Of a DNA stretch of 64,000 bases, positions 12,533 to 60,626 are shown in pieces (the first letter of the stretch is position 1; each line of letters starts with the position of its first letter). The position numbers and the translations under genes were made by a program. The notes below the pieces were generated by a model. It worked only from the letters and a program-made list of their open reading frames with translations, ran no database searches and was not told where the DNA came from. The stretch covers positions 525-64,524 of the forward strand of contig JAKBEL010000021.1 of the NCBI GenBank assembly GCA_021833825.1. Direction: 5' to 3'. The DNA is from a bacterium (GTDB taxonomy: Bacteria; Babelota; Babeliae; Babelales; Vermiphilaceae).

Positions 12533-13702
12533 ATGTTCATAAAAAGAGCGATTGCACAGGATATTCTTGAAGCGGCAAAGCATTTTTCAGCTTTAGCTGT
12601 TCTGGGGCCACGCCAATCGGGTAAAACAACGTTAGTACGTAATGTTTTTACAAACCATGCATATGTCAATTTAGAGCATCCCAAGACCAGAGATTTTGCG
12701 GTTGCAGATCCGGAAGGGTTTTTTGAACAGTATCAGAATGAATATGGGCTTATTATAGATGAGTTTCAGCATGTGCCTGAACTACTATCCTATATTCAGA
12801 TCTTTATTGATGAACGCAAAAGGCCCGGTTATTTCATTTTAACCGGTTCGCAAAACTTTTTAATGAATGAAAAGATCTCGCAAACATTAGCAGGTCGGAT
12901 CTCTATTCATACCTTATTGCCACTCTCTATTGGCGAGTTAAAAGAGGCAGCATTATTGCCACAATCACCAGAAGAACTTATCTGGAAGGGTTGTTATCCA
13001 TCGGTCTATATCGATAAAGAGCTCTCTCCAGAACGTTGGTATCAGAACTATATTCAAACCTATCTTGAGCGTGATGTTCGGCAATTAAAACAGGTTGAGG
13101 ATTTGCAACTGTTCAGAACTTTCGTGCAACTGTGTGCAGGGCGCGTTGGGCAGCTGTTAAATTTATCTTCACTTGGTAATGATTGTGGTGTTAGTGACAC
13201 CACTGCACGGCGTTGGATAGCGTTATTAGAGGCAAGTTATATTATTGTTCTATTGCAGCCATATCATAAGAATTTTAATAAACGGATCACAAAAAGCCCA
13301 AAGCTCTATTTTGTTGATACCGGTCTTGCATGTTCATTGCTTAATATTCAAGAGAATAGCGTTACTGATCATTATCTACGCGGTGGGCTGTTTGAGAATA
13401 TGATGATTGTTGATTTCTATAAACGAGCCTATAATCAAGGTGGTGTGCCACATTTCTATTTCTGGCGTGATCAAACTCATGAGATCGATCTTATTATTGA
13501 TCGTGGGACCAGTATCTATCCGGCAGAGATTAAATCGAGCAGGACCATCTCACAATCATTTTTCAGTAATGTTCAATATTTGGCGCAACTGGCTGCACTG
13601 AATCCAAAAGATAATGTTATTATTTACACAGGAGATGAGCATCAGAAGCGCACCATGGGGCAAGTGATTGGCTGGCGTGATGTCGATTCGATCGTTATAT
13701 GA
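12533..13702 (+). CDS. AAA+ ATPase with DUF4143-type C-terminal region (paralogue of 1785-2948)
   Basis: Walker A GPRQSGKTT and IIDEFQ. A strong SD precedes the start. Confidence 0.85.
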   Translation: MFIKRAIAQDILEAAKHFSALAVLGPRQSGKTTLVRNVFTNHAYVNLEHPKTRDFAVADPEGFFEQYQNEYGLIIDEFQHVPELLSYIQIFIDERKRPGYFILTGSQNFLMNEKISQTLAGRISIHTLLPLSIGELKEAALLPQSPEELIWKGCYPSVYIDKELSPERWYQNYIQTYLERDVRQLKQVEDLQLFRTFVQLCAGRVGQLLNLSSLGNDCGVSDTTARRWIALLEASYIIVLLQPYHKNFNKRITKSPKLYFVDTGLACSLLNIQENSVTDHYLRGGLFENMMIVDFYKRAYNQGGVPHFYFWRDQTHEIDLIIDRGTSIYPAEIKSSRTISQSFFSNVQYLAQLAALNPKDNVIIYTGDEHQKRTMGQVIGWRDVDSIVI

Positions 13703-13719
13703 TATTGTTGCAATAAAAA

Positions 13720-13745
13720 AGCCCCAGGAATAGTACCCTAGGGCT
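13720..13745 (-). terminator. Candidate terminator hairpin between convergent genes
   Basis: agcccc-agg ... cct-agggct imperfect stem. An A6 run on the plus side gives a T-run after the hairpin on the minus strand. Confidence 0.4.
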
Positions 13746-13774
13746 GTAATCTATGTGATCTAAGAGATGCTCCT

Positions 13775-14197
13775 TTAAGCTGGAGTCTCTTTTTCTTCAA
13801 CAATTTTAAATGGTAATTTTTGTTGACCAGCAAAGAATTTGTAAGCTAAAGGTGATAATACACCGAAGGATAGTAGATGAGATAAATAAGATGGTTGATT
13901 TTTTTCGGAGTTTAAACTGCAAAATCCTATGCAGATAATATTTATTCCCATGCTAACAATATTAAATAGTTGATCCAGGTTCACCTCTAGCTTTTTATTA
14001 TTAAACCAGGGTGTTTCTATAAGTACATCATATTCTGGTGGACGGTTCCAAGCAAACTCTTTAGCTAGGAATTTTCTGGCTCTTGATAATTTGCCTGTTT
14101 CTGGATTGTATTCCATTTTTTCGAAATGATTGCCATTTTGAGCTGTTACTGTTGAATAGATTATGGTAATCAATAAGCTAAAGACTAGCTTTTTCAT
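13775..14197 (-). CDS. Hypothetical leader-bearing membrane protein
   Basis: ORF track 140 aa. Leader MKKLVFSLLITIIYSTVTAQ and two later hydrophobic segments. No motif recognised. Confidence 0.55.
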   Translation of the reverse strand: MKKLVFSLLITIIYSTVTAQNGNHFEKMEYNPETGKLSRARKFLAKEFAWNRPPEYDVLIETPWFNNKKLEVNLDQLFNIVSMGINIICIGFCSLNSEKNQPSYLSHLLSFGVLSPLAYKFFAGQQKLPFKIVEEKETPA

Positions 14198-24547: not shown

Positions 24548-24801
24548 TATGTCTCTTGGCCCAAAAAATCTGATGGCACATGTCGAATAAATTCAGATGG
24601 CGAAATTCAAGTTTTGCCCAAATTGGGTGAAGTTTTAGTGTGAGTGTGCCCAATGAGCAGAGGCACTTAAAGGTTGTAGAGTCTTTTTTCTCCGCATAAA
24701 AATTGTTTATATGTGATCAATAAAAAAAAATGGACCATTTTCCTTTCACATGGTATTATGGTTATGTTAATAAATATGTATCATGTTATACAGGATCGAT
24801 T

Positions 24802-25932
24802 ATGAAAAAATATATAGTAGCATTATTGCTTATTCAAGCAGTTCAATTGCTCAACGCAGCAGCTGATGAGGAAGATACTCCTGTTAATCCCCATCAGTTA
24901 TTGGGAGAGGCAGTTGCCCATTCTATTCATTTTTTTGCTCCAGCATCTTATTTGGGTGAACCATATGTAAGAAAATTATTATTAGGTGATCGCTTTCCTG
25001 TCCACAATGCGGTTGAACAAGGATCTCTCTTTAGGCTGGCATATTTTGTGTCCAGAGGGTTTGATTTGGAAGAAAGAGATAATATGGCATGGCGCACTCC
25101 ACTTCATAAGGCCTCTTGGTGGCTATTTGATAGAGATGTTCTGCTTTTTCTATTAAAAAAGGGCGCCGATGTTAACGCTCGTAATTATTTTGGGCACACA
25201 CCCATTTTTGAAGTTATTATGCAAGGCAACCCGGGTGGTGCGCAGTTGCTGTTAGAGCATGGTGCTGATCTTAATGCTCGAGATAATAGTGGCCGCACAC
25301 CATTTTTTCATGCGCGCAATGTGCCTACTTTTAGATGGTTACTAGAAAACGGTGCCGATGTTAATGTTCGAGATGATCATGACTGCACACCACTTTTTGG
25401 AGCTATTGAGCGCCTCAGGGGGCGAGATTGTGTTGAATTTTTACTGCAAAATGGTGCCGGTGTTAATGTTCGGGATACTTCTGGTAATACACCGCTTGGT
25501 TTTGCCATTTCAACGTATGGTAGAGCTCGGCTTGACTCAGAGCCTCTCTATTCTATTGTGCAACTATTAGTAGAAAGCGATGCTGATGTTAACGCTCAAG
25601 ATAATAATGGTTGCACTCCATTGCATAAAGCTGCATCTGTAGGGAATCTGCCTTGTGTAAAGCTCTTGCTAAAACAAAAAAATATTAATATTTATCTGAC
25701 GGATGCAGATCAAAAGAGTCCAGCACATTATGCTTTGAGAGGCATCAGAGATTGGAATAAAGATGATTATCTTCAGATTCTACAAGCATTAGCCCAAGAA
25801 GGCGCACCTCTTTCAGATGCTTCTTATCAGAATGATTTTGATCCACTGATTGAAGATGGAATAATTACGCAAGAAGAGTGGACTGATATTATGAGCTGGG
25901 TAGTTGAAGATGTTAAAATGGCGCAAGATTAA
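24802..25932 (+). CDS. Ankyrin-repeat protein with signal-type leader
   Basis: Repeated G.TPL...A...G....V..LL..GADVNA modules (about 7). Start taken at MKKYIVALLLIQAVQLLNAAADE, which is the same as in the downstream paralogue; the ORF-track start is 24730. Confidence 0.85.
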   Translation: MKKYIVALLLIQAVQLLNAAADEEDTPVNPHQLLGEAVAHSIHFFAPASYLGEPYVRKLLLGDRFPVHNAVEQGSLFRLAYFVSRGFDLEERDNMAWRTPLHKASWWLFDRDVLLFLLKKGADVNARNYFGHTPIFEVIMQGNPGGAQLLLEHGADLNARDNSGRTPFFHARNVPTFRWLLENGADVNVRDDHDCTPLFGAIERLRGRDCVEFLLQNGAGVNVRDTSGNTPLGFAISTYGRARLDSEPLYSIVQLLVESDADVNAQDNNGCTPLHKAASVGNLPCVKLLLKQKNINIYLTDADQKSPAHYALRGIRDWNKDDYLQILQALAQEGAPLSDASYQNDFDPLIEDGIITQEEWTDIMSWVVEDVKMAQD

Positions 25933-26004
25933 GAGAGTTCTTGTAAAACTACCATCTCATTATTCTGTTTAAAAAAAGATACATTTTATTATATAAGGTC
26001 GATT

Positions 26005-26685
26005 ATGAAAAAATATATAGTAGCATTATTGCTCATTCAGACAGTTCAATTGCTCAACGCAGCAGCTGATGATGAGGGTCTTTCTGTAGATATTGCGTGT
26101 TTATCAATAAAAAATGGTGCAGATATTGATGCTCGAGATAATTTTGGCCACACACGACTTTTTAAAGCTGTTTTAGGATATGATGAAGATCTCGTTCAGT
26201 CTTTACTAGCAAATGGCGCCGATGTTAATGCTCGGGACGTATCTGGCAACACTCCGCTTATTGCTGCGATTTCTGCTGTTTATCCGGATCAAAATTATTA
26301 TGGAGTTATTCTGGAATTGTTGATAGCAAAAGGCGCCGATATTAACAGTCAGGATAATTATGGTTACACTCCGCTACATCAAGCACTATCTTTTCGATAT
26401 CTGCCTTGCGTGCTACTTCTTTTAGAACAAGAAAATATTAATATTGATCTTAAAAGTAAATATGACGAGAGACCGATAGATTGCGTTTTGAATAGTTACT
26501 TCTGTTGGAAGAAAGATGATTATCTTCAGATTCTACAAGCATTTGCCCAAAGAGGCGCACCTCTTTCAGATGCTTCTTATCAGAATGATTTTGATCGATT
26601 GATTGAAGATGGAATAATTACGCAAGAAGAGCGGGCTGATATTATGAGCTGGGTAGTTGAAGATGTTAAAATGGCGCAAGATTAA
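26005..26685 (+). CDS. Ankyrin-repeat protein, shorter tandem paralogue
   Basis: The leader and the last ~60 aa (KDDYLQILQA..APLSDASYQNDFD.LIEDGIITQEE..DIMSWVVEDVKMAQD) are nearly identical to 24802-25932. The central ANK repeats differ. Confidence 0.85.
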   Translation: MKKYIVALLLIQTVQLLNAAADDEGLSVDIACLSIKNGADIDARDNFGHTRLFKAVLGYDEDLVQSLLANGADVNARDVSGNTPLIAAISAVYPDQNYYGVILELLIAKGADINSQDNYGYTPLHQALSFRYLPCVLLLLEQENINIDLKSKYDERPIDCVLNSYFCWKKDDYLQILQAFAQRGAPLSDASYQNDFDRLIEDGIITQEERADIMSWVVEDVKMAQD

Positions 26686-32669: not shown

Positions 32670-33920
32670 TTATGCATCTGCGCAGGGCCGGTAATGGGTT
32701 ATTATTTTTTCAAGTACAAGTGCGCTGGCAGGTGCGATAGCAAGTAGTGCTAATGGTATCAATTTTTTAATCTGGTTGTGTAATCGATCTGGTGCTTTAA
32801 AATGTTTAATTTCTGGTATTGCATCAAATGAATCTATGGTATTCTCTTGCCCATGATCAAGTGCAAATCTCTTTAATATCGTTTGATGTTCCTGTTCTAA
32901 TTCTTGGGCAAATAGCTGTTGTTGTTGTAATAGCTTTTCACGCTTACGCTTTAGCTTTGCTTCCGCTTTTGCTCTTTCATGCTCTATCTCATTTTCACAT
33001 TTCATCTCTAGCTGTGCAAATTTCTCTTGAATGAGTGGTTCGTACTCAGCTGGAGGTGCAAGCTCTATTGTAACAGGTTCATCTGTTATGAATGGTTCTG
33101 ATTCAAGATTGACCTGTATTTCTTGTGCGTGCGCAATTGCTTGTAACATCTTTTGAATATTGGTTTGTGTATGATGAGCGCTTGCAATAATTGAGCTCTC
33201 TATTTTGGGTAATTGGTTGCCTAGAGCCGTTATATTGCTCTGCATGAGATGTGATTGAGTCTGAGCAAATTGCCCAACGCCAATAATTTCTTGATGCAGT
33301 TTAATAAAGTTTTCGGTTGACAGGCTGCTCGTTTGGGTTATCTGTGCAAGAATTTCTTGTTTGTGTTCTGCAAGAGCAAGGTGCAATCGAGCACTCTCTT
33401 TAGATATGTGGGCGCGTATTTTGATCTCATGTGCAAAAAGCGCATAGCGCAGATTTTTATCAAGAAGGGTCATCTTTTTTTGTATGTCCTGTTGGTTCTG
33501 TTGTGCTTGGCTATAGAGTATGCGAAATTTTTTATCGATTCTTCGTTCAGCGGCATCTTGATGATCAAGTAACGTATTAGTGCTATCAACAATCAGTCTT
33601 TTTGTCTCTAGGTCAGATGCATACCAATATAATGTGCATCCGCATAATCCAATTGCTAAGGCATTAGTTGGAGAGATGCCCTTTTGATGTAGTTTATAAC
33701 ATGCAAAGCTTGCAGCCAATGATGTTGCGCATCCGGTTGCCAAAAGAGGCTTCCAATGATTGTAGGTCCATTGGCCAATATTTTTCCACCAGATTATTCT
33801 GTGCATGTTGTATTCAAGGCGATCTGTCCATTGATCAATTGGATGGTCATTTTCTCCCGGCTGTATAGCAGATGGTAGAAGAATGCATAATATGGTGAGG
33901 TATAACCTTGATATATACAA
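32670..33920 (-). CDS. Membrane-hairpin plus coiled-coil protein (family member 3) with extra C-terminal TM
   Basis: TTG start 8 nt after AAGGGGG. Hairpin PLLATGCATSLAASFACY-KLHQKGISPTN-ALAIGLCGCTLYWYA, a long coiled-coil, then C-terminal LIPLALLAIAPASALVL. Confidence 0.65.
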   Translation of the reverse strand: MYISRLYLTILCILLPSAIQPGENDHPIDQWTDRLEYNMHRIIWWKNIGQWTYNHWKPLLATGCATSLAASFACYKLHQKGISPTNALAIGLCGCTLYWYASDLETKRLIVDSTNTLLDHQDAAERRIDKKFRILYSQAQQNQQDIQKKMTLLDKNLRYALFAHEIKIRAHISKESARLHLALAEHKQEILAQITQTSSLSTENFIKLHQEIIGVGQFAQTQSHLMQSNITALGNQLPKIESSIIASAHHTQTNIQKMLQAIAHAQEIQVNLESEPFITDEPVTIELAPPAEYEPLIQEKFAQLEMKCENEIEHERAKAEAKLKRKREKLLQQQQLFAQELEQEHQTILKRFALDHGQENTIDSFDAIPEIKHFKAPDRLHNQIKKLIPLALLAIAPASALVLEKIITHYRPCADA

Positions 33921-34003: not shown

Positions 34004-34984
34004 TTATCTTATAGTTAATGATTCTGAATTTTCAGTTTTTACGAGCTTTAAAGAATCTTCTTGTTGATCTGATGCATAATAATTTCTCGTTAAATATGCT
34101 CTGCCTGAATCTCCAAAGATCATGATGCCGATATCTTTTGAGCAGAAATGGTTTTGGGCATAATGCATCGCTGCAAAGCAGACTGCGCCACTGCTTGGCC
34201 CAACAAGAAGCCCATGTTGATGTGAGAGTGTGGCAAGTATGCTTAAAGCCTGTTGATCGCTGACTAATATTGCCTCATCTATAATGGCCTCATCATACAC
34301 GGGGGAGATGAAATCAACTCCCATGCCCTCAATGTGGTATGGTTTTGGATGTCCGTTAGTTGCTCGATATGAATTGATAGAATCAATTGCTATGATACGA
34401 ATATTAGGATTCTGTTCTTTTAAAAATCTGCCAGCTCCAGATATAGTCCCTCCGGTTCCAGCTGCTGCAAAAAGATGTGTTATATGCCCTTCGGTCTGCT
34501 GCCAAATCTCTGGGCCAAGAAGCTTGTAATGGGCCTGTGCATTGAGTATGTTATAATATTGATTGGGCATGAATGAGTTGGGGGTCTGCTGGTGTAATTT
34601 TATTGCATGTGCATGATAACTCTCAGGATGATCAAGAGAGTCGGTTGTTGGAAATATATGGACCTGCGCGCCGTAAGCACGAAGTGTTTGCAACTTTTCT
34701 TGACTGATCTTTTCAGAGACACAGATGATAACAGTATATCCTTTTGCTGCACCAATCATTGCCATAGCAATTCCTTGATTGCCAGATGAGGCATCAATAA
34801 TGGTGCCACCAGGTTTTAATTGGCCATGTTTTTCAGCATATTCAATCATATAGAGTGCTGATCTATCTTTTACGCTGCCGCCTGGATTGAGGTATTCCAA
34901 TTTTGCATAGAGTTTACCAGAAGTGATGGGAACTCCTATAATAGGTGTGTTGCCAATCGCATGATATATCGCTCTATGTATCAT
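34004..34984 (-). CDS. cysK: Cysteine synthase (O-acetylserine sulfhydrylase) family PLP enzyme
   Basis: NPGGSVKDRSA (PLP Lys), SSGNQGIAMAM and GTGGTISG. CysK, CysM and a CBS-like enzyme cannot be separated by eye. Confidence 0.8.
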   Translation of the reverse strand: MIHRAIYHAIGNTPIIGVPITSGKLYAKLEYLNPGGSVKDRSALYMIEYAEKHGQLKPGGTIIDASSGNQGIAMAMIGAAKGYTVIICVSEKISQEKLQTLRAYGAQVHIFPTTDSLDHPESYHAHAIKLHQQTPNSFMPNQYYNILNAQAHYKLLGPEIWQQTEGHITHLFAAAGTGGTISGAGRFLKEQNPNIRIIAIDSINSYRATNGHPKPYHIEGMGVDFISPVYDEAIIDEAILVSDQQALSILATLSHQHGLLVGPSSGAVCFAAMHYAQNHFCSKDIGIMIFGDSGRAYLTRNYYASDQQEDSLKLVKTENSESLTIR

Positions 34985-34999
34985 AAGAATCCTCTAATC

Positions 35000-36148
35000 T
35001 TAGCAATGTGCCTGTCTCTGCAATTCATGATACAGTTCAAGATGCTGATTGATCATCGCTTCAGGTTTAAAATCATCGAGATTCTCTTTATACGCACTCA
35101 ATGGTTGATGAAGATTTTCCTGTTTGCTTATTTCTAGCATATATTTTCCCAGGCTCGTCCAATCATATTGTTCGCATAAGAGACCATTTTTCCCATGCAT
35201 AATGACATCATGAATGCCGCCAGTATTATAACTTATTACAGGTAGCTTTAACAATCGTGCTTCTATAATTGCGCAAGGAAGCCCTTCCCATAGGGAGCTT
35301 AACACAAATGCATGCCAATTGAGCATGAAGGGTGCAACAGTGTGTTGCCATCCATGCAATCTGATAACATCTTGTAAATGATGTTGGGCAATCCATGTTT
35401 CGATCTCATTGCGCAATATACCATCACCAATGATCTCTAGACGGGCAAGAGGATTTTGAGTATAGACGTGAGCAAAAGCTTGCAAAAGATCAAAGATGTT
35501 TTTCTGTCTTTTAAAGCAGGCGATGGTTCCAAAGATGAACGGTCGATCTTGTGGAAATTCGGGTAGAGTTTTTGTTTGTGATTCAAATTGTGACCAATCA
35601 ATAGCAGCGCGTATAATAGTGTGATGAGATTTAAATTTTCCAAATAGGCGAATGCCGGTCTTTACATCTTCAATTGATACGCAAATAAAGTGATCGGTAA
35701 TAAGACTTGTGACCCATTCTAAGCATATAATGGGAATGCGAATAAAAAATGGTTGATGATTATGAAATCCATAGCCATGAATAGTGTGAACTCTATATTT
35801 TACTTTGGCAAAAAATGCGGCCCATCTGCCAATCAGTCCAGCTTTTGTGCTGTGGGTGTGCACAATAATATTTGGATGTTTTTTTCGTAATCTGCGTAAT
35901 TCTTGTATTAAACGAAAAAAGGAGAATAATTCTTTGAGTATGCCATTGACTTCACGTGTCAATTGGTCAAGGAGTATTACGTTGTTATTATTTTTGATAT
36001 TTTCTGCTAATATGCCATCTTTTCCAGATATGAGAAGGGTGTTAATATCCCTTTTTTTTAGATCGTTAAGTAAAGTAAGGCATACTTTTTGGGCGCCGCC
36101 CAGTTCAAGCTTGGTTATAATATAAACAACATCTATAGGGTGCTTCAT
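35000..36148 (-). CDS. Glycosyltransferase, GT4-type
   Basis: LGGAQKV near the N-terminus and SLWEGLPCAIIEA...GGIHDVI near the C-terminus. Confidence 0.8.
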   Translation of the reverse strand: MKHPIDVVYIITKLELGGAQKVCLTLLNDLKKRDINTLLISGKDGILAENIKNNNNVILLDQLTREVNGILKELFSFFRLIQELRRLRKKHPNIIVHTHSTKAGLIGRWAAFFAKVKYRVHTIHGYGFHNHQPFFIRIPIICLEWVTSLITDHFICVSIEDVKTGIRLFGKFKSHHTIIRAAIDWSQFESQTKTLPEFPQDRPFIFGTIACFKRQKNIFDLLQAFAHVYTQNPLARLEIIGDGILRNEIETWIAQHHLQDVIRLHGWQHTVAPFMLNWHAFVLSSLWEGLPCAIIEARLLKLPVISYNTGGIHDVIMHGKNGLLCEQYDWTSLGKYMLEISKQENLHQPLSAYKENLDDFKPEAMINQHLELYHELQRQAHC

Positions 36149-36171: not shown

Positions 36172-37131
36172 TTACGTAAGTAATATTAAAAAAAATGCTA
36201 TTAAAAATGAGTAGATTGCGCAGGTATCAATAAGGCCTTGTGCAAACATGCTGACTTTGGAAATATTAGAATAATATTTTGGTTGTAGAGCAATTTGATG
36301 TACGGCAGCAGCAGCTGTTTTTCCCGATGCTATTCCTGGCCCAAGTGTTCCGATTCCCATGCAGAATGCTGCTGCAATCCATGTAAGGCTTGCAAATAGC
36401 GTTGGGGTTGTTCCATAGAATATAAACATTAATGAGATGGTCAATGCAAAGATGATTGGCGTTTCGATGATTGCTTGGCTGATAAAGGTGAAGGACATGA
36501 GTTGAGGATAGGCCTTACGATTAATGCCAAGGCCACGGCATGCATTTTTTGCAAATAGAGCAAGCCCTATTGCGGGACCGATACTTCCAAGCCCTATACA
36601 CAATCCTGCTGCAATAAGCATAAAGCTTTGAGCGAGCGTCTGTGCATGTATAGCTTGTGATCTAATAAGTAGTGCAATAATAAAACCAAAAATAATTGGC
36701 GTCTGAATAATTGATTGTGTGATTAACATAAAGCGTAAAATTTTGTCAGCAAAGAAAGGTTGTCGCGCGATGGACATACATGCCTCTTGTGCTGGAAGTG
36801 ATGATGCAAGCCCAATGATAAATCCAGAGAGGCATATTGATAGAGCGATGCCAACTTCAGCGATGTTTGCGGGTACAGATTGTGTTATATCATGGCTGCC
36901 AAGCAAGAGGAAAAATGCTATGGTAACTCCCATGATTGCAGATGTTTCAATTAATGCTGTTCCTAAAATAGCAACTCGTGCAATGTCATTCTTAGCGCTC
37001 GGTTGTTTGTCTATTGCTTTTAAAGCCGCGCGGCTTGTGAGGCCTTCTCCGATTCCTACACTTACTGAGTTAATTCCGACCGTAAGTGCGATAGTGCAAA
37101 AATGCAAAAGACTTGCGATATATTCGATCAT
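36172..37131 (-). CDS. atpE: ATP synthase c-type (proteolipid) subunit made of four fused hairpins (8 TM)
   Basis: Four consecutive G-rich helix / polar loop / helix units. The loops are DKQPS, ARQPF, NRKAYPQ and ALQPK. The helix-2 key residue reads E (LIETSAIMG), Q (IIQTPIIFG), E (IIETPIIFA) and D (LIDTCAIYS). Confidence 0.75.
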   Translation of the reverse strand: MIEYIASLLHFCTIALTVGINSVSVGIGEGLTSRAALKAIDKQPSAKNDIARVAILGTALIETSAIMGVTIAFFLLLGSHDITQSVPANIAEVGIALSICLSGFIIGLASSLPAQEACMSIARQPFFADKILRFMLITQSIIQTPIIFGFIIALLIRSQAIHAQTLAQSFMLIAAGLCIGLGSIGPAIGLALFAKNACRGLGINRKAYPQLMSFTFISQAIIETPIIFALTISLMFIFYGTTPTLFASLTWIAAAFCMGIGTLGPGIASGKTAAAAVHQIALQPKYYSNISKVSMFAQGLIDTCAIYSFLIAFFLILLT

Positions 37132-37886
37132 GATTTGCCTATAGGTTTTTCTGTCTGTTCAGTTGATAGAGCAATTGATAAATAGGTTATGGTTAACATA
37201 GCAAATACAAATGCTTGAATAGCGCCTTCAAAGAGGCCAAAAAAGAGAAGAATAATGAGGTTGATGCCGCTCAGTAGCCCAATAGTTTGGAATAATGTTG
37301 AACCGTGAAGGGTGCTGAAATAGATAGTGGCTATAGTAGATCCTCCAAAAATATTTCCATAGAGCCTGAAGGCCATAGAGATAATAGATGCAAATTTACC
37401 AACTATATTGAGTGGCAACATGATAAAAATAGGATCAAAATATTCTTTGATATATGCTCTAAGTCCGTGGGTTATAATGGTGTAATATTGCACATAAAAA
37501 AAAGATATAAGGCTTAATGCTAGGGTTGTATTGAGATTTTTGGTCGGCTCTTCTGATCCAGGAATTAAGGAGATGCTATTGCATAAGATGATATATATAA
37601 ATAGGCTTGCGATAAATGAAAAATGATTAAATGAAAAAATTCCCAAAGATTGTATTGTTATATCGTAAAATGCTTTTATGAATGCCATAAGTGTATGAAA
37701 TAATAGTATGTGTTTTTGTCGACGAAAGAATATGTATCGGCAAAAACAACCAAATAGTCCAATTATGAGTATAACGAACCAAGTGTTTATGACCGTTGTG
37801 CGATCAATATTAAAAAAAGAATGAACAAACCCAAAATCAGCTAAGGGTTGCCATTGAGATTCTGATAAAAAATCAAAGCCTTCCAT
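37128..37886 (-). CDS. atpB: F-type ATP synthase a subunit
   Basis: SMAFRLYGNIFGG (conserved Arg) and EGAIQAFVFAMLTITYL. There is a 4-nt ATGA overlap with the c-type gene. Confidence 0.8.
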   Translation of the reverse strand: MEGFDFLSESQWQPLADFGFVHSFFNIDRTTVINTWFVILIIGLFGCFCRYIFFRRQKHILLFHTLMAFIKAFYDITIQSLGIFSFNHFSFIASLFIYIILCNSISLIPGSEEPTKNLNTTLALSLISFFYVQYYTIITHGLRAYIKEYFDPIFIMLPLNIVGKFASIISMAFRLYGNIFGGSTIATIYFSTLHGSTLFQTIGLLSGINLIILLFFGLFEGAIQAFVFAMLTITYLSIALSTEQTEKPIGKS

Positions 37887-38154
37887 GCGGGGTGGCCTTT
37901 TTTCTTAAAATGCTAGACCAAAAACCTGTAACAAAACACATTAATGTTAGTATAAAGTGTATTCGTGTTGTTATCAATAAATAATAGCAGATAAGTCCAA
38001 AAAGAACTATACGTGTGATGACTGGTATAATAAAGGTGATCAGAATGGATGCTTGTTGAGCAAAAAGGACTCTTTTCCGTTGATATACGAAAAAGAGTCC
38101 ATATAAGTAACCACCACATAACCCAACAATGCTAGATATAATATTATCAAACAT
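37873..38154 (-). CDS. Small 3-TM membrane protein, AtpI/AtpZ/AtpR-like by position
   Basis: 93 aa. It overlaps the a-subunit start by 14 nt and the FolC-like stop by 1 nt. Assignment rests on size, topology and position only. Confidence 0.5.
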   Translation of the reverse strand: MFDNIISSIVGLCGGYLYGLFFVYQRKRVLFAQQASILITFIIPVITRIVLFGLICYYLLITTRIHFILTLMCFVTGFWSSILRKKATPHGRL

Positions 38155-39563
38155 TATAGTTTTTTATTACCCTTATATTGAGAATATTGAGCGAGTAATG
38201 ATGTTGAACCAGCAACAACAATAAGGCCATGCCGTTCATCAACAGAACTTAAAGCTGCCTCAAAAGCCTCTTTAAAGTTTTTGGCTGAACGAGCTTTTAT
38301 TTTCATGCTCTTGATATCATTGGTCACTTTTTCTACATCAGATAAAGTTTTATCCATATCTCCAGGAATTGGATTTACAGGACATACAACAATGTTGCCA
38401 GATGTCTTTTTAAAGAAATAGCGCAATAATTTAAGAAATTCATCTTTCTCTAAGTCTGCATTATTTGAGCCTATGATTAAGCAGAGGCCCTTCAATGGTC
38501 TTTGATAATGGAGCAAGCGAATACCAAGAAGTAGGTTTTTAAAAGCATCTAAGTTATTAGCATTGTCAAGCAAGATTGTTGGCTTCTCTTTTTCAAGTAA
38601 TTGAAATCTGCAAGGCAAGTTGTTAACTGTTGTGCCCCAAAATTGCTCTACGGTCTCTTTTGGATTGAGTTCAGCTTGGCGTTTGGCTTCTAATGTTGGC
38701 CGGCCTCGCTGACCCTTCTGTTTTGCAAGTAATGAATTGTGCAGAACTTTTTCTTGGGGAACAAATGAATTTATATATATTTCGCCAATTCGTTCAGCAA
38801 GGGCTGCGCATCTACCATGTAGTTGTTCAAATGGATAACTTAATGTGGCAAGTTTTCGAATAGGCATTGCCCAGACGCCGCCCTTATTTTCGGTAAGCTC
38901 GAGCATATCTTGAAGATTTAATTTGCTCTGATCTGCAGAGACAACGTATGTGCCAGGTTGAACGATTTCAAGCATGCTCTCAAGAATCTGCTTATTTTCT
39001 TCAGCTTCAGGTTTTTCAGATCCAGATATGCGTGTTATCGCTACCAATTTTGGAGCGCAAATTTGTGATGAGTAAAGAGGATCATTCTCATTGATTTCAC
39101 AAATAAGAACATCGACTTTATTCTGATGGCTATATACAAGTGACATCATGGTCAAAAGTTCAAGAGTATCGGCATTAATACCGGAAGTTTCAGCTGTACT
39201 GATAACCTCATTTGCAAGATCGGTGAAAGCTTTATTTGATATAGTTTCATTGTTTATGCATATGCGCTCATTATAGCTTAGTATATGGGGTGCATAAAAA
39301 AGACCAACTTTGAGCCCTTCATTTGCTAGTAATTGTGCAGTGAAGTTCATGGTTAAACTTTTGCCATTATTACCAGAAACAAATATGGTATTGATTTTTT
39401 TAGATATCGATCCGAATGCTAGGTCAAGCTCTTTAATGCAAGAGACATGATTGCTATCAGGTTGAGACCAGTTCCGATCTAAAAATTCTACCAGTTCATT
39501 GTAGCTTCGCTGTTTTGCAACAGGTATAGCACCTTTTTGCGGTTGCTTATTTATTGTTTTCAT
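38154..39563 (-). CDS. folC: Mur-ligase-family protein, FolC-like (folylpolyglutamate/dihydrofolate synthase-like)
   Basis: VSGNNGKSLT...GLFYAPHILSYNERI resembles the FolC P-loop region (canonical GTNGKGS...SPHL...ER). ATG at 39563 follows GGAGA; the ORF-track start is 39638. Confidence 0.6.
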   Translation of the reverse strand: MKTINKQPQKGAIPVAKQRSYNELVEFLDRNWSQPDSNHVSCIKELDLAFGSISKKINTIFVSGNNGKSLTMNFTAQLLANEGLKVGLFYAPHILSYNERICINNETISNKAFTDLANEVISTAETSGINADTLELLTMMSLVYSHQNKVDVLICEINENDPLYSSQICAPKLVAITRISGSEKPEAEENKQILESMLEIVQPGTYVVSADQSKLNLQDMLELTENKGGVWAMPIRKLATLSYPFEQLHGRCAALAERIGEIYINSFVPQEKVLHNSLLAKQKGQRGRPTLEAKRQAELNPKETVEQFWGTTVNNLPCRFQLLEKEKPTILLDNANNLDAFKNLLLGIRLLHYQRPLKGLCLIIGSNNADLEKDEFLKLLRYFFKKTSGNIVVCPVNPIPGDMDKTLSDVEKVTNDIKSMKIKARSAKNFKEAFEAALSSVDERHGLIVVAGSTSLLAQYSQYKGNKKL

Positions 39564-39888
39564 GACATCTCCAATAAATGTTCGATTAGATATTTTATAG
39601 CCACTATTTTCTATTTGAAAAGTTAAATCTGCGCGCATCCTTTTTTACCAGATTGATAACTTCTGTTATACTTTAACTATACGCAAAATAACAAAAATGT
39701 CAAACAATCAATTATTGCTGATCCGTTGGACCTTTTTTTTCAAAAGAAAAATGGTATGTGGGATTGATGCGCTTCTTGGTAAGGGTTGTTGTGGACCTCT
39801 CTTTTTAAAGTCTTTTTGACACGATGTATCGGATTGGTTTATTCTTAAAAAAGTTAATATTAACTCAATAGATAAGGTTTTTAAAGAT

Positions 39889-42554: not shown

Positions 42555-43940
42555 TTAATAGAATACGTTCAGAGAGAACATAATCGTTGTGCTTCTGAAG
42601 GCAAATTCTACCATCATTGGGGTCTGCCACAAAAATCCAATAGAAAGATGTGAAGAGATATCATAGTCGAGCCCGACATTACCCATTTGGGCTCTAAAGC
42701 TCGATATTTTCTCTAAAGCTTGAGGTTGGAATGCTGGATCGCAGACCTTTAGGTGTATCGAGTCTTTTTGGTGTTGAACAATTACATATTGGAAATAGAA
42801 GGAGAGATGCTCTAGAAAATGATATGCTCCAAGCTTAGCGGCAAAGTGCCAGTTCCAGCCTGGCGAGCGCCTTATATCTGTTACAAATGGAAATAGGGTC
42901 TGTTGGCAAATATGATTAGGAACTCTAAAGCAGTTGAAATCTCGAGGAAAGAAGTAGGTTCCACCAATTTCGCAACCTATATCTATTGTCTCCACAAAGT
43001 CAAGATTGACTCCGGCAGATGCTCCTATTGAATGATGATCATTATTGCCATGCGAGAGCCCAAATATTTGACTTGGATTTGGCTCTTTGCCTATGGCAAC
43101 AGTTCCGCTGAGCATTAAGAATGGCATAACATAAAGATTTGGCCAGTCATTGCGAATCATGTTTCCTTCATAGGCGTGTCGCCAGAAGAGGTTAAATCGC
43201 AAGTCTTCCATTGTTGTTGAATGATAGTTGTTAAGGTTTATGCATGTCTGGTCACCAATGATTTTTAGTTTATCCATTAAATATTTATCGACATTATCTG
43301 GTGTTAATGCTGGATCGCATGGGTTAATTAAATTTTCAGCCGAATATCCAGAAAAACCGGTCAAGTTGGTGATGCATGATGGTGTATTGGTGATATCAGA
43401 GACCCCGCCCTGAATTTCAAGCCCAACGTTGCTTAAGATGTGAAGATTGATGTCCCAGCGAAAACCTCTTTTGCGATATTTTGAGTCGACTGAAAAAAAA
43501 CCGAATCGTTGGCATGGATCTGTTGGTTGATCGCAAATTGGTGGTGTAATTGTTGGAAATAGAGCCTGCTGAGCTTCTAAAAGGACTGGCGGTAACATGT
43601 TGCATGCTGGTGTCTGTCCGTAAAGAAGTGCAATCATATTCCAGCGGCCATTAATATCTCCAAGGGGAATAAGCTCTTTGAAGTTGTCTCGTGAGCTGTC
43701 AGAATTTTGTCCAAATGGAGAGAATGATATATAGAATTTCTGTGGAACATATCGTTGGCGCTCGATGCCATCTTTATCTATAAATCGTTCTCTTTTGTAT
43801 AAAAAGGTATAAGGATCGAGTGTTGTAAAGACGGGAAATGGATCATTCCTTGAATAAGAAGTAGGTACAGCAAATAAATCTATACTTAATATACTCATTA
43901 AAAAGCCTAACAATGAGAGGCTGAATCTTTGTGCTAACAT
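42555..43940 (-). CDS. Cys-rich putative outer-membrane beta-barrel protein (porin/MOMP-like candidate)
   Basis: Signal-type leader. Alternating hydrophobic pattern with a terminal aromatic residue (...FSLNVFY). Many Cys. Local motif similarity to 60705-62642 (GNNDHHSIGASAG versus GDNGHFATKLGAEG). Confidence 0.55.
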   Translation of the reverse strand: MLAQRFSLSLLGFLMSILSIDLFAVPTSYSRNDPFPVFTTLDPYTFLYKRERFIDKDGIERQRYVPQKFYISFSPFGQNSDSSRDNFKELIPLGDINGRWNMIALLYGQTPACNMLPPVLLEAQQALFPTITPPICDQPTDPCQRFGFFSVDSKYRKRGFRWDINLHILSNVGLEIQGGVSDITNTPSCITNLTGFSGYSAENLINPCDPALTPDNVDKYLMDKLKIIGDQTCINLNNYHSTTMEDLRFNLFWRHAYEGNMIRNDWPNLYVMPFLMLSGTVAIGKEPNPSQIFGLSHGNNDHHSIGASAGVNLDFVETIDIGCEIGGTYFFPRDFNCFRVPNHICQQTLFPFVTDIRRSPGWNWHFAAKLGAYHFLEHLSFYFQYVIVQHQKDSIHLKVCDPAFQPQALEKISSFRAQMGNVGLDYDISSHLSIGFLWQTPMMVEFAFRSTTIMFSLNVFY

Positions 43941-56292: not shown

Positions 56293-59200
56293 ATGAGCGA
56301 TAGATTTTTTATACATAAATGGAAATTTACCATCTGGTTTTTGTTATGTGCGGTACCTTCTTTAGTGAACGCCATACCGACTATAACATGGACTAATTTA
56401 AATACACCATCAAATATTTCTGGTGGATTTGTAGCGAGCGTGCTTCTTGATGCAACCGGAAGTGGGGGCGTTATTGAGCTTCAACCAAACTCACCTACTG
56501 TCTTTCCTGGCACAGTTGGAACCAATGTCATCTCTAGTTATAATGTAGGGCCTGCTATGATAGGCGTCAGTTTAGCCGGTGATACCATTATTAGAGGTAA
56601 TGCTGCAGGTAATTCTAGACTCTATGTTTATGCACAGCTTGGAGCAGAAGTTGTTTTTGATTTAAGCACATATAGTTTGACCTTTGAAGGTTCTGCAAAT
56701 GGGGATGATCTTCTTATTGCAATACAGGGTCAAGGAAAGGTTGTATTTGTCTTAGGGGACGGGAAAAAACTTATATTGACTAATAATAGTGTAGCGGGCG
56801 GTGGTCGTGTACAGATGTATAGACAGTTAGATGATAATATGACTGCAAGACCAGGAGCTCAACTCATATTTGTAGGCAATACAGGTTCAGTGAATCCAGA
56901 AGTTGTTATTGAAGAAGGCTCGATTGTAAGTTATTTAGGTTATACTGCTCAACCAAATGCACCGACCTCTGAAAATGGTATTATTCTTTTTGATACAACA
57001 AACAATAGTGGTTCCAATGAGATGATTTTGACTATAGGGCAATTGGGTGCTGTTATTGTCAGAGGGCGTCTTGTAAGTAATGTTACACCTCCTGAAGATT
57101 ATAATTATACGCTTGCCGATATTGATCCTAGTATGCCAGCTGGATTTAATGCAATTTTTAATGTTATAAATATGAATGGGTCATCTGCTAGTGGCGGCTT
57201 GTTAGTGCAGAACTATAATAATACATTAGGAGAGCTCATTTGGGATCCATGGTGCAATTTAGATGTTCGTAGCAATCCTCCATTTGGTAATTTCAATGGA
57301 GTTCAATGGGGCTTTGTATTAGGTTCTTATGCAACTTTAAATGTTAATGGTTATGCGTACCTTGATTATGTCTCATTGACCGGTACACAGTGCCCAGTTG
57401 TATCCTCTCTTGTAAATGCTTCATCGCTCATTAAGTCACGTAATCCATCAGCACTCTTTACCGATGGTCAACCAGATCCATTATTTATACCGCCCCAGAT
57501 TACTATTGGCCAAGTTGGTCAACCTGCAGGAATCTTCTTCCGTTCAGGAGTTGATAATAATGGAACCATTCGTTCTTTATCTGATCCAAATCCATTTACT
57601 ATTGATCCTGCAAATCGTACGCCGGGTGAAGGATTTGTTGTTTTTGATATAGAAGGTCCGCTGAATATAACCGGTTTTAATACGGCTTTACAAGAGTTTT
57701 CGGGCATAGAGTTACTCTCTCTTGAAGTTGATCCGACAGGAGGATCACTATTTGTTGGAGATGGACAGACTATATTTCCATTAAGAACTTTTGCAACTCA
57801 ATCAGTAACAGATCAATGCACAGGGCAAGTTACAGAGACCTATTTATCATATAATAATGCATGCTTCTTGAATAATGGTCGTGTCAATTTGCAATCAGTT
57901 TCAATTATTCATACAGATCAGAATCATCATGTTTTTGAAGATAATGATGTTGCCTCAGAGCCAGCATATATTGGTGGCGAGACGTGGCTCTTCAAATCTT
58001 GTGTAGGATGCATCGCAAAACCAAAATGGGCTTTTTATAATTCACGTTTTGATGTGCAGACGAGCGTTGCATTAACAGGAGTTGATCTCTTGGTGCCTAA
58101 TGGATCTGATTATGCAACACCATGTGGTGCAAATCTCTCACAGTTTGCATTCTATCAAAATGGTAAAGCGATTGATCATGGCAATGGTCGTAATATGATT
58201 TTAGGTACCTATATTGGTTCAACGGCATGTGATGGTTGTACAGTGCTCGATAAAGATGCTCAATTAGATGTTATGCAGGATCAAGATTGTGACAGTCCTA
58301 GCCCTCAAGAGCTTCAATTGGTTAATGGGGTCAATGATAATACTATTGTTCAAGGCATAACGGGTGATATTAGTAATCAGTATTCGATACAGACGATTTA
58401 TTTAGGTAACAATAGTAACATTTCAGTTGGAACACAGGGCAGTCTTGGCACCACTATGAGTGTTACAGTGCCAGTTCAATCGACCTTCCCATTGACTACG
58501 TTGCCAATATTAACCATTGATGGAAATTTCTTCTCATTTGAAACGCGCGGTGGAGAAAACGGTCTACCAGATACAAGCAATGTGACAGGTCAAGGTGGTA
58601 TCTTTGTTGATACAAATGGTACATTCCAAATAGGGAGTCAAGTTTGTGGCTATCGTACTAATATTGGTGCCATGGTAACAAAGAGTAGTAATGGTGTAAT
58701 TAATCTACCTTCAAATCGTGTGTTTTTTGATCCTACTATCGGTATTGCAACTTGGAACTTAGATTTAAGTGATTCAAATCAGTGGGTTATTGTGCCAAAT
58801 GGTGTTGAATATGAAGAGTATAATCTCAATTGGATGTTTACCATTAAGGATTATAATCAGTTCATGCCATATTATTTAACAGATTGTTACAATCCATGTG
58901 TATGTCCACCTGTTATAGATATGAACGTAACAGCGATTCCAGAAGTTCAAGGGACTGTGCAACAGTTTAATATTCAAGGTTCACGCATTGGTGATCCAGC
59001 TCATCTAAAAGTGAACGGTGGAACAATAGAAGAGCTTGTGATGCTTGTTGGTTTTAATTCAGCAGAGGCTCCAGTTGCGGTATTAGTACTTGAGAATAAT
59101 GCTGAAGTTGGACTTGGTTCAACACATCGTAATGTTGATTCATTGCATGCATCAGTGCAGCTGGGTGTGAATGGTATCAATCTTATTATGGATGGTGGAG

Positions 59201-60612
59201 ATGCAACAGTAGTTCTTAATGAAGATGTTATTATTAATAATATCTGTTCAATTTTACCTGGTCCAAATATCTCTTCAACATCAAAACTAAAATTCACCTC
59301 CGATTGTTGTAAAACATTGCGTGTTACTAAAGATGGTATACTTGACTTGAGTGGTTTTGATGAAGGTCAAGTTATCGAATTTGCAGGTAATGTGCACGTG
59401 GTTTTTGAGCCGGGATCAACAGTAATCTATAATCCTATCTCTCAAGGAACGGGGCCAACATTACGTTTTGCAGATCAGGCTACATGTCTATTTGAACCAG
59501 TACATAATCTTGATGGTATTTTTGGAACCGATTTGACAGGAACAGATACTGTTCGCGTTGTATTTACTGGAGTAGGAGTATTAGAGTTTGCAGATTGTGC
59601 TCGAGCAGATCTGCCGCGCGATGCATTTGTTGGTATTGAGTCTTTAGCATCTTGTGATATAAGCGGTGCAGTTGTGCGACTTCATATAACTGATAGCGCA
59701 GAATTCTATATTGGTGATACTGATTGTAGAACGCCCGGTGGTGTGTTACAAGTTGGCAATACTATTCCGTTCACTATGAATGTTGATCCAGTAATTACTT
59801 TTAGTCTTATCTTAGATGGTCCTCAAGCTAAATTTGAAATTGGGCCACAAGGGTTCTTAGGTCTTGGTATGGGGATTGTCAATAAGCCTGCACTGGGGCA
59901 TGACAATTGGCTTGTAACTCAAGCATATAATTTAAATACAGTCAGTTTAGATTTGCCTAATGGCATTTTCCGTCATGCTCAACTCTATGCTGGAAATGAT
60001 GATCGCTCAGCATTGATAGCATTAGGTGATTCTATTTTGGGTGGAACAAATCCATTTGAATTCTATAGTGACCCACTGCCAGGTACAGCGCCTGATAAAT
60101 ATTCAGCATCATTGCTTTCAAATACTAATCTGTTGGGTGGTGGTAACATAATTGCAGCAGCGCCATCAACAACAGAGGTGTTCGCTCCAGTTGTTGATGA
60201 TGTGAATGGTGCTATAAATTCAGGTCAATATTTTGCAGGGATTTTGGCATCAACACCGATATTACAAGAGCCACAATTTTCAGGCAATGCAGCAGTGAGC
60301 GCTCAAGAGGCTCAATTGTTATTAAGGGCACAAGATATATTATTATTAGCTCCAACAACTAATCGTGCGGTTGCAGCACCAAGTGACCTGCTCAATCAAG
60401 TGCGTGTTGGTTATATTGATTCTGCTAATATTCCTGGATCTGAAGGTTTAATTGGAAGAATAGAAGTTATTAATATTCTTGGAAAGACTCCGCAGACTGT
60501 TGTTCAGCAACATACATTGCAGATTGGCGTTGCACAAGTAACCCCAACTCCATTGAGTGCTGGAAATAATCCTCCACGTCCAATTTTATCAGTAAATGAA
60601 TTAGGTAATTAA
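56293..60612 (+). CDS. Giant (1439 aa) secreted G/N/T/V-rich, Cys-containing protein, beta-helix/adhesin-like
   Basis: Leader ...LCAVPSLVNA. Recurrent short strand-turn patterns (GAEVVFDLSTYSLTFEG, GKVVFVLGDGKKLILTN, GAQLIFVGNTG). Close Cys pairs SCVGC, ACDGC, DCYNPCVCPP and SDCC. No C-terminal barrel signature. Confidence 0.7.
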   Translation: MSDRFFIHKWKFTIWFLLCAVPSLVNAIPTITWTNLNTPSNISGGFVASVLLDATGSGGVIELQPNSPTVFPGTVGTNVISSYNVGPAMIGVSLAGDTIIRGNAAGNSRLYVYAQLGAEVVFDLSTYSLTFEGSANGDDLLIAIQGQGKVVFVLGDGKKLILTNNSVAGGGRVQMYRQLDDNMTARPGAQLIFVGNTGSVNPEVVIEEGSIVSYLGYTAQPNAPTSENGIILFDTTNNSGSNEMILTIGQLGAVIVRGRLVSNVTPPEDYNYTLADIDPSMPAGFNAIFNVINMNGSSASGGLLVQNYNNTLGELIWDPWCNLDVRSNPPFGNFNGVQWGFVLGSYATLNVNGYAYLDYVSLTGTQCPVVSSLVNASSLIKSRNPSALFTDGQPDPLFIPPQITIGQVGQPAGIFFRSGVDNNGTIRSLSDPNPFTIDPANRTPGEGFVVFDIEGPLNITGFNTALQEFSGIELLSLEVDPTGGSLFVGDGQTIFPLRTFATQSVTDQCTGQVTETYLSYNNACFLNNGRVNLQSVSIIHTDQNHHVFEDNDVASEPAYIGGETWLFKSCVGCIAKPKWAFYNSRFDVQTSVALTGVDLLVPNGSDYATPCGANLSQFAFYQNGKAIDHGNGRNMILGTYIGSTACDGCTVLDKDAQLDVMQDQDCDSPSPQELQLVNGVNDNTIVQGITGDISNQYSIQTIYLGNNSNISVGTQGSLGTTMSVTVPVQSTFPLTTLPILTIDGNFFSFETRGGENGLPDTSNVTGQGGIFVDTNGTFQIGSQVCGYRTNIGAMVTKSSNGVINLPSNRVFFDPTIGIATWNLDLSDSNQWVIVPNGVEYEEYNLNWMFTIKDYNQFMPYYLTDCYNPCVCPPVIDMNVTAIPEVQGTVQQFNIQGSRIGDPAHLKVNGGTIEELVMLVGFNSAEAPVAVLVLENNAEVGLGSTHRNVDSLHASVQLGVNGINLIMDGGDATVVLNEDVIINNICSILPGPNISSTSKLKFTSDCCKTLRVTKDGILDLSGFDEGQVIEFAGNVHVVFEPGSTVIYNPISQGTGPTLRFADQATCLFEPVHNLDGIFGTDLTGTDTVRVVFTGVGVLEFADCARADLPRDAFVGIESLASCDISGAVVRLHITDSAEFYIGDTDCRTPGGVLQVGNTIPFTMNVDPVITFSLILDGPQAKFEIGPQGFLGLGMGIVNKPALGHDNWLVTQAYNLNTVSLDLPNGIFRHAQLYAGNDDRSALIALGDSILGGTNPFEFYSDPLPGTAPDKYSASLLSNTNLLGGGNIIAAAPSTTEVFAPVVDDVNGAINSGQYFAGILASTPILQEPQFSGNAAVSAQEAQLLLRAQDILLLAPTTNRAVAAPSDLLNQVRVGYIDSANIPGSEGLIGRIEVINILGKTPQTVVQQHTLQIGVAQVTPTPLSAGNNPPRPILSVNELGN

Positions 60613-60626
60613 CGATAAAGAGTATG

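Follow-up and report, generated by a model that had tools for sequence, protein, structure and literature searches.

Dependentiae, a phylum of ATP-importing parasites, probably build an F-type rotor only from fused c subunits. We analysed a 64,000-nucleotide stretch of DNA (contig JAKBEL010000021.1 of assembly GCA_021833825.1, positions 525 to 64,524; hereafter the window), which comes from a metagenome-assembled genome (MAG) of a Dependentiae (TM6) bacterium. Three adjoining genes in the window encode a 93-aa membrane protein, a 252-aa F-type a subunit and a 319-aa protein that contains four c-subunit hairpins, which we call c4. We propose that this gene set specifies the membrane core of a complete Dependentiae F1Fo ATPase with a re-geared, all-c4 rotor that works in pump mode, and we give this reading a probability of about 0.7. 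The proposal builds on the gene anatomy, the fold of c4, its conservation, the pattern of ion-site loss across the phylum and the F1 genes, gamma among them, that Dependentiae genomes carry at other places.

The 319-aa protein matches the Pfam family ATP-synt_C (PF00137) in four separate stretches (E = 4.8e-34, 116.8 bits against a cut-off of 24). With 122.8 bits, it also passes the cut-off of 116 set for the F-type c equivalog NF009998, and the best NCBIfam matches of the 319- and 252-aa proteins are the F-type c and a families. When c4 was modelled with AlphaFold2 (AF2) using 34 homologues, the model had eight long helices in four hairpins (predicted local distance difference test 93.6, predicted template modelling score 0.89). 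The hairpins are mutually homologous (hhalign probability 97-99.5%), and the ion-site positions in helix 2 read E62, Q143, E223 and D302. An F-type c subunit carries a carboxylate in every hairpin; here hairpins 1, 3 and 4 carry one and hairpin 2 has Q143. These data indicate that c4 is a member of the F-type c family with one degenerate repeat. A preliminary description of this DNA had read four c hairpins with the pattern E-Q-E-D from the sequence, and Pfam, AF2 and hhalign all agree with it.

Two other family assignments were considered and rejected. The V-type K models of NCBIfam score 17-52 bits against cut-offs of 61-211, and the partner of c4 is an F-type a subunit; the resemblance of c4 to V/A-type proteolipids is functional only. 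For the N-ATPases, the c model TIGR03322 scores 95 against 130.85, the a model TIGR03306 scores 103.2 against 302.1, and the atpDCQRBEFAG layout is absent. A two-step duplication, which would make hairpin 1 most like hairpin 3 and hairpin 2 most like hairpin 4, is also unsupported, since the closest pair is hairpins 3 and 4, followed by hairpins 1 and 4. Hairpin 4 is the c4 hairpin most like single-hairpin c subunits.

We investigated how widely c4 occurs. The identical protein is encoded on contig DAHZAV010000005.1 of the MAG GCA_027404905.1, where the window spans bases 478-64477. A search of a 5.8-billion-protein collection returned 1,052 homologues, and the best 120 of these are all 292-331 aa long and 56-96% identical. 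Those with a name are labelled 'ATP synthase F0 subunit C [Candidatus Dependentiae / Babeliales]'. Scanning one genome per GTDB species gave 73 c4 loci, and 75 non-redundant loci were analysed. Where the record gives a lineage, it is mostly Dependentiae/Babeliales or TM6; many records have only a generic title, and the few other labels are apparently wrong. The preliminary description had proposed a survey of related genomes for the fusion, and in all 75 loci the a gene lies directly upstream of a c4 gene encoding 314-327 aa. The a-c4 pair is thus a phylum-wide feature of Dependentiae in the genomes examined. Mean column identity is 69% in a 34-sequence set and, judged from this alignment, the c4 family is under strong purifying selection.

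We counted the site pattern, in the order hairpin 1 to hairpin 4, over 74 species-level c4 sequences. The pattern is E-Q-E-D in 36 genomes, E-Q-E-E in 18, E-M-E-D in 6, E-E-E-E in 5, E-E-E-D in 5, E-Q-G-E in 2, and E-Q-E-G and E-V-E-D in 1 each. The site in hairpin 1 is always E (74/74) and that in hairpin 3 is E in 72 of the 74, and hairpin 4 has D in 48, E in 25 and G in 1. The residue in hairpin 2 is neutral in 64/74 genomes (57 with Q, 6 with M, 1 with V) and E in the other 10, and the replacements there are always uncharged. A midpoint-rooted neighbour-joining tree separates a clade of nine divergent genomes with four carboxylates from a clade of 65 in which hairpin 2 is neutralised. The M and V forms make up a single nested subclade. 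Inside the 65-genome clade a further site was lost in two lineages, and one genome (L039) has apparently returned to E. On this midpoint-rooted tree, the simplest reading is that the fusion came first and that a single loss of the hairpin-2 site followed later.

Conservation outside the ion sites is also informative. In the polar loop of hairpin 2, R123 is present in 73/74 genomes, Q124 in 70/74 and P125 in 74/74; in the loop of hairpin 1, Q43 is kept in 70/74 and P44 in 65/74, and hairpins 3 and 4 have other loops. Such conservation in hairpins 1 and 2 would be expected of a ring on which F1 docks with its gamma/epsilon foot. Position 29, in helix 1 of hairpin 1, is Q in 37 and E in 25 of the 74 genomes; we take it to correspond to the place where Na+ rings (Ilyobacter, Fusobacterium) have a Gln or a second carboxylate as ligand. 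Hairpins 2-4 have no such helix-1 ligand. Y307 of hairpin 4 is found in 72/74 genomes.

The change from E to Q in hairpin 2 could instead be neutral or regulatory, with Q143 helping to coordinate Na+ for neighbouring sites or marking the register of assembly. In Na+ rings with the I. tartaricus geometry, the residue at +1 of the ion site serves the neighbouring site. In c4 a Thr stands at +1 in all four hairpins, and hairpin 2 keeps it in 58/74 genomes as the active hairpins do; the second E or Q in helix 1 of hairpin 1, at the Na+-ring ligand position, points the same way. However, Q143 is also replaced by M and V, which are unable to bind ions, and further sites have been lost in other hairpins (E-Q-G-E, E-Q-E-G). 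The corresponding Q of the Acetobacterium woodii c1 subunit is established as lacking an ion site (PMC9171764). We consider it very unlikely that Q143 serves such a non-gearing role.

The partner of c4 is well defined. The 252-aa protein matches ATP-synt_A (PF00119; E = 2.8e-35, 122.6 bits against a cut-off of 33.9), and its R174, N178, Q224 and Y235 align with R210, N214, Q252 and Y263 of E. coli. This alignment makes it a canonical F-type a subunit that retains both the channel residues and the stator Arg noted in the preliminary description.

The 93-aa protein has no significant Pfam or NCBIfam match of its own. A small open reading frame (ORF), mostly with three predicted transmembrane (TM) helices, abuts the a gene in 72/75 loci, and G15 and R48 are invariant in this family. 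Sub-threshold matches to ATP-synt_I (PF03899) occur in 12/35 family members (best E = 0.0012) and to AtpR in 2, and no Pfam family besides ATP-synt_I recurs in more than 4 members. Profile comparisons of the family with E. coli AtpI and Desulfobacterota AtpZ (hhalign) and with the PDB were all negative. Position, size and the sub-threshold ATP-synt_I matches suggest that it is probably an AtpI-type ring-assembly factor; the earlier label 'AtpI-like' has the same support. According to a study cited in PMC9171764, AtpI is required to assemble the F/V-hybrid ring of A. woodii.

The genes are tightly packed. The FolC-like gene upstream overlaps the 93-aa gene by 1 nt (TAATG, read from the sequence), the 93-aa and a genes overlap by 14 nt (ATG at 37884-37886, TGA at 37873-37875), and the stop of a lies over the start of c4 in a 4-nt ATGA overlap. 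The 93-aa, a and c4 genes are translationally coupled. Rereading the sequence gave the same coordinates, lengths, strand and overlaps as had been described before.

In a canonical operon, b, delta and the F1 genes would follow c. In the window, genes for a family 4 (GT4) glycosyltransferase and a CysK-like enzyme stand in that place, which Pfam and ORF scans bear out as described earlier. The ORFs scanned across the 64 kb included none for b, delta, alpha, gamma, beta or epsilon, and the next 10 kb of the source contig past the window held no atp genes. A tblastn search with E. coli AtpA, AtpD, AtpG, AtpC, AtpH and AtpF against the window and 78 loci (flanks of up to 10 kb) found only atpB, and 0/75 genomes had an F1 gene within 10 kb of a-c4. 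A scan of IMG/VR with E. coli AtpD and the c4 alignment gave only enterobacterial-type matches and no c4.

These results raise the question of whether a-c4 does without F1 and conducts ions passively or under gating, or serves as another rotary device. Such an F1-less ion-conducting module had been suggested in the preliminary description. It would fit both the absence of F1 and stator genes within 10 kb in 75 genomes and the operon partners, which are unrelated enzymes. However, F1 genes are encoded elsewhere in Dependentiae. In the clusters of orthologous groups (COG) table published for Babela, AtpA, AtpD, AtpG, AtpC, AtpH and AtpB each occur once in both Babela and TM6SC1, and AtpF is listed for Babela. 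In the Babela gene table, atpG (Babela_gene_468) maps to 491 kb, about 193 kb away from c4, as a solitary gene flanked by a PIN/YacP-type gene and a CAAX protease gene. Using Babela gamma as a seed, we retrieved 665 homologues of Dependentiae type. In the 1,733,188-bp chromosome OY969428.1, gamma lies at about 1.70 Mb and c4 at about 0.646 Mb, roughly 1 Mb apart. The presence of all F1 COGs, a gamma gene on the chromosome that carries c4 and gamma homologues throughout the phylum argue against a motor without a head, as does the nearly invariant RQP loop that would contact gamma/epsilon. An uncoupled Fo would also dissipate a membrane potential paid for with imported ATP. We regard the F1-less reading as largely refuted and as the least probable of those considered here.

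Gamma is monocistronic in 5/5 genomes (Babela and four others) and occupies one slot beside TsaE and YacP. The TsaE and YacP (NYN) genes beside atpG are divergently oriented, and the four MAG loci have a MurA-like gene of the EPSP_synthase family nearby. Because gamma is monocistronic in all five, the atp genes of Dependentiae are scattered and not split into two operons, and the scattering is old and conserved. The best reading is that a-c4 belongs to a complete ATP synthase encoded around the genome. The other suggestion of the preliminary description, a re-geared rotor of a split ATP synthase, holds up with one amendment: the operon is scattered rather than divided in two. Operon-based searches will therefore wrongly call such enzymes incomplete.

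In rotary ATPases a full turn is equivalent to three ATP, and during that turn each hairpin with a carboxylate takes a single ion past the stator Arg. The Dependentiae membrane core would consist of an AtpI-type assembly factor, an a stator and the rotor, with the other subunits encoded at separate places in the genome. The ring would contain a few copies of c4, each hairpin taking a single place in the ring like a normal c subunit. Hairpins 1, 3 and 4 would carry the ion-binding carboxylate (E, E, D/E), and the neutral Gln of hairpin 2 would pass the stator Arg without an ion. A ring of n c4 copies would then have 4n hairpins and move 3n ions per turn, or n ions per ATP rather than 1.33n. Rings of 8, 12 and 16 hairpins would give 2, 3 and 4 ions/ATP, as opposed to 2.67, 4 and 5.33 with four active sites per c4. 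The covalent fusion would fix both the place and the proportion of the inactive hairpin. In this mechanism we infer the composition and size of the ring, the direction, the inertness of Q143 and the coupling ion.

The enzyme would most likely work as an ATP-driven ion pump, because Dependentiae import ATP and have no respiratory chain. Previous reports describe ATP/ADP translocases and no electron transport chain in these bacteria, and assume that their ATP synthase runs in reverse (PMC4776705, PMC6561590). Fewer ions per ATP would allow a steeper ion-motive force, the same logic as in V-ATPases; hairpin duplication with site loss lowers the ion/ATP ratio and raises the gradient that a pump can reach (PMC9171764).

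When hairpin hidden Markov models (HMMs) were run over every stop-to-stop ORF in some 1.6 Mb of Dependentiae DNA from the surroundings of c4 and gamma, no other c-like ORF was detected, which is in line with a ring of c4 only. Tentatively, and with clearly less confidence than in the overall proposal, we suggest that c4 alone builds the whole rotor, most simply as a trimer with 12 hairpins, 9 sites and 3 ions/ATP. If so, the three-fold symmetry of the trimer would match that of F1, and the ring would be the first homo-oligomeric multi-hairpin rotor of an F-type enzyme. The lineages with four carboxylates, E-Q-E-D/E, E-Q-G-E and E-Q-E-G would then form a natural series of gear ratios, tuned while the synthase of an ATP-importing parasite was converted into a pump.

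Alternatively, c4 could be a minority spacer in a hybrid rotor, where it would co-assemble with a single-hairpin c encoded elsewhere. The closest solved relative of c4, A. woodii c1, joins the single-hairpin subunits c2/c3 in this way. Desulfobacterota have c proteins with 4, 5 or 6 hairpins, and in the loci examined the fused gene belongs to a full operon that also holds an adjacent c of 82-83 aa. For COG0636 the Babela COG table has a count of 2, and since the atp genes are scattered, the absence of a neighbouring c proves little. On the other hand, the 10 kb on either side of a-c4 contain no single-hairpin c in 75 genomes, nor do the surroundings of gamma in 4 loci, and the COG0636 column is unreliable, being 0 for many genomes with an F-ATPase. 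Dependentiae c4 keeps 3-4 of its 4 carboxylates, whereas the spacer proteins keep 1 of 4-6, and c4 is translationally coupled to a. Together these observations make a hybrid rotor unlikely, though less so than a non-gearing Q143.

Several points weigh against an all-c4 pump. The COG0636 count would fit a single-hairpin c elsewhere in Babela, and the fused c of Desulfobacterota, a homologue, has a normal c adjacent to it in the loci examined. We infer the ring stoichiometry, coupling ion and direction alike, and the four sites are chemically heterogeneous, so that their equivalence is an assumption. The c4 tree is rooted at its midpoint only, and the Q-to-E reversal in L039 shows that position 143 can flip. 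The F1 genes were demonstrated in Dependentiae genomes other than the window's own MAG, and alpha, beta, delta, epsilon and b come from one published COG table.

The gene order around the a-c4 pair is conserved. A genome with a c4 only 59% identical and Babela massiliensis share the order pilin, Sua5, FolC, small protein, a, c4, GT4 glycosyltransferase, CysK. The GT4-CysK order is thus present even in the genome with the divergent c4, and the FolC neighbour is shared by L001, L004 and Babela. The FolC-like gene apparently heads the transcription unit. A sigma-70-like promoter upstream of it is a consensus match only, and the count of such sites around the locus is not above shuffled controls. 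Coordinates are collected in the table below.

Features of the a-c4 locus in the window, and related loci in other genomes (prefixed by locus name)
Feature	Position	Strand	Basis or remark
c4, fused rotor subunit, 319 aa, four F-type c hairpins, 8 TM helices	36172..37131	-	Pfam, AF2, PDB matches
Hairpin 1 of c4, residues ~8-82	36886..37110	-	E62 (codon 36946-36948), E29 in helix 1, QP loop
Hairpin 2 of c4, residues ~86-162	36646..36876	-	neutral Q143 (codon 36703-36705), ARQPF polar loop kept
Hairpin 3 of c4, residues ~166-241	36409..36636	-	E223 (codon 36463-36465), motif IIETPIIF
Hairpin 4 of c4, residues ~245-319	36175..36399	-	D302 (codon 36226-36228), Y307 at +5
F-type a subunit, 252 aa	37128..37886	-	PF00119 match, stator Arg R174 (codon 37365-37367)
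93-aa 3-TM protein, probable AtpI-type assembly factor	37873..38154	-	position, size, sub-threshold family matches
FolC-like Mur-ligase gene	38154..39638	-	TIGR01499 folC 2.9e-37, below cut-off; conserved neighbour, outside the machine
GT4 glycosyltransferase	35000-36148	-	Pfam; conserved downstream neighbour
CysK-like PALP enzyme	34004-34984	-	Pfam; conserved downstream neighbour
Sigma-70-like promoter, best match, TTGACA-16-TATAGT (11/12)	39676..39703	-	consensus match; 38 nt upstream of FolC start
Monocistronic gamma genes	L086, L088, L092, L093 (gamma 10001-108xx), Babela_gene_468		
Desulfobacterota fused-c loci	L090:10001-11221, L094:8001-8972		family of P0371, P0417, P0395

In its 5' part, shortly after the FolC stop, the 93-aa gene contains a hairpin with a 14-bp stem (6 GC pairs) and then a T-run (38067-38100, minus strand). 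It could be an attenuator or processing site that divides folC from the atp genes, or it could be due to chance; 7 terminator-like sites were seen against 4.2 +/- 2.1 in shuffles.

Other parts of the window hold further features. Two paralogous genes for AAA_14 + DUF4143 ATPases of 387 and 389 aa occupy opposite strands with about 10 kb between them (1785-2948, minus; 12533-13702, plus). Two neighbouring genes at 24730-26685 (plus) encode ankyrin-repeat proteins of 400 and 226 aa, typical of the host-interaction repertoires of Dependentiae, and ankyrin gene arrays flank atpG in L086 too. A class A bacterial RNase P RNA was detected at 3798-4160 (minus; 212 bits). An ORF call for a PASTA-domain protein (3035-3868) runs about 70 nt into its 3' end, and the true start of that gene is probably further downstream. 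Long ORFs of 416, 461, 1439 and 645 aa, located at 32670-33920 (minus), 42555-43940 (minus) and 56293-62642 (plus), have no significant Pfam domain; three of them were scanned here, and the 1439-aa one is given according to the precomputed annotation. The 1439- and 645-aa genes and the next one, of 1026 aa, are clustered behind a spermidine/putrescine-type ABC transporter, and all three encode large unannotated proteins.

The ion/ATP ratio of a rotary ATPase is set by the ion sites on its rotor ring. Textbook F-type enzymes vary this ratio only by the number of identical single-hairpin subunits, and synthases are considered to have become V-type pumps by inventing hairpin fusion combined with site loss. 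In Dependentiae, an F-type enzyme appears to have taken the same course across a whole phylum of ATP-importing parasites, with living intermediates that range from four down to two sites per four hairpins. The 'synthase to pump' gearing hypothesis is testable in culturable members (Babela, Chromulinavorax, Vermiphilus). In a literature search we found no paper on a four-hairpin F-type c, on the Dependentiae fusion or on the Desulfobacterota family. The four-hairpin c of Dependentiae is apparently undescribed, as the preliminary description had supposed, but only in that sense: its principle is known, and more than 1,000 database clusters hold such proteins under the plain name 'ATP synthase F0 subunit C'. 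Thousands of proteins of 320-490 aa are labelled 'subunit c', so that reconstructions of Dependentiae and Desulfobacterota metabolism which presuppose a standard ATP synthase miss the change in stoichiometry.

We next compared c4 with the closest known systems. A scan of 1.84 billion cluster representatives returned 451 c4 relatives, three of them unusual: two five-hairpin proteins with the pattern E-Q-Q-Q-Q and one protein of 968 aa. The five-hairpin proteins belong with a Desulfobacterota family of 2,410 members in length classes of about 324, 404 and 486 aa (4, 5 and 6 hairpins). Members named by organism come from MAGs of Desulfobacterales/Thermodesulfobacteriota ('Deltaproteobacteria'), and all named ones are labelled plain subunit c. 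In one five-hairpin member (P0371), the operon reads AtpZ, ORF, a, c5, 83-aa c, b, b', delta, alpha, gamma, beta, epsilon, and a four-hairpin member adjoins a single-hairpin c of 82-83 aa in an operon of the same type.

Like Dependentiae c4, the four-hairpin Desulfobacterota c has four hairpins in one chain. The two are collinear (32% identity over 308 aa, E = 8e-40, far better than register-shifted alignments) and share the hairpin signatures ETS / QTP / xTP / AIY. The Desulfobacterota a subunit is 38% identical to that of Dependentiae, and in the Babela table the best outside matches of both AtpE and AtpB are Deltaproteobacteria. These similarities suggest that the Dependentiae and Desulfobacterota proteins likely share an ancestral fusion. 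Strict hairpin-by-hairpin orthology is supported only in part, hairpin 3 being ambiguous. The two differ in that c4 keeps three or four sites, whereas the Desulfobacterota members examined keep Glu only in the first hairpin (E-Q-Q-Q...), with a single c adjacent and a full operon. By analogy, the Desulfobacterota proteins look like spacers of A. woodii-type hybrid rings.

The 968-aa ORF (L091:10001-12907, plus strand) has 13 c-type hairpins in one chain, each with an E-S/V-x-A-I-Y site, and an F-type a subunit follows at 12967-13863. It is readable only with genetic code 25, as there are 91 in-frame UGA codons under table 11, and the GC content of the locus is 28.6%. It looks like a whole rotor ring in one polypeptide from a bacterium that reads UGA as Gly (Gracilibacteria/Absconditabacteria-like) and recalls the 13-hairpin archaeal c of Methanopyrus. 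If the all-c4 ring is real, then together with the 4-6-hairpin Desulfobacterota and 13-hairpin proteins it would mean that hairpin fusion has been explored no less widely in F-type than in V/A-type rotors.

Among proteins in the PDB, the best sequence match of c4 is A. woodii c1 (E = 2.9e-12), and its best sequence matches are all F-type c. Foldseek against the PDB also gave A. woodii c1 at the top (4BEM chain J; E = 2e-5, root-mean-square deviation 1.8 A, TM-score 0.77 on the target), followed by the V-type K subunit (NtpK) of Enterococcus hirae. Both c1 and K cover half of c4, and no solved structure therefore has four hairpins. Like c4, c1 is F-type by sequence and has fused hairpins, with an E and then a Q that align with hairpins 1 and 2 (AVAETSGIF / AVAQTTGIY in c1, ALIETSAIMG / SIIQTPIIFG in c4). 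In contrast to c4, c1 has 2 hairpins, is present as one copy among nine single-hairpin c2/c3 and is encoded in a complete operon, whereas c4 retains 3 sites out of 4, is not flanked by a single-hairpin c and is encoded away from all F1 genes. A 2022 account gives hairpin counts of 1, 2, 3 and 13 in archaeal enzymes and the A. woodii hybrid for the F-type, with four absent (PMC9171764).

The V/A-type proteolipids (eukaryotic V-ATPase c, E. hirae NtpK, archaeal c with 2, 3 or 13 hairpins) resemble c4 in that hairpin multiplication, whether or not carboxylates are lost, changes the ion/ATP ratio, but they belong to another sequence family and partner with V/A-type a/I subunits, not with an F-type a. 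Operons split into atpIBE(F) and atpHAGDC are found in alpha-proteobacteria and cyanobacteria. As in Dependentiae, the Fo genes a and c of these operons stand apart from the F1 genes; the Dependentiae genes, however, are atomised, and a-c4 sits between folC and a glycosyltransferase gene.

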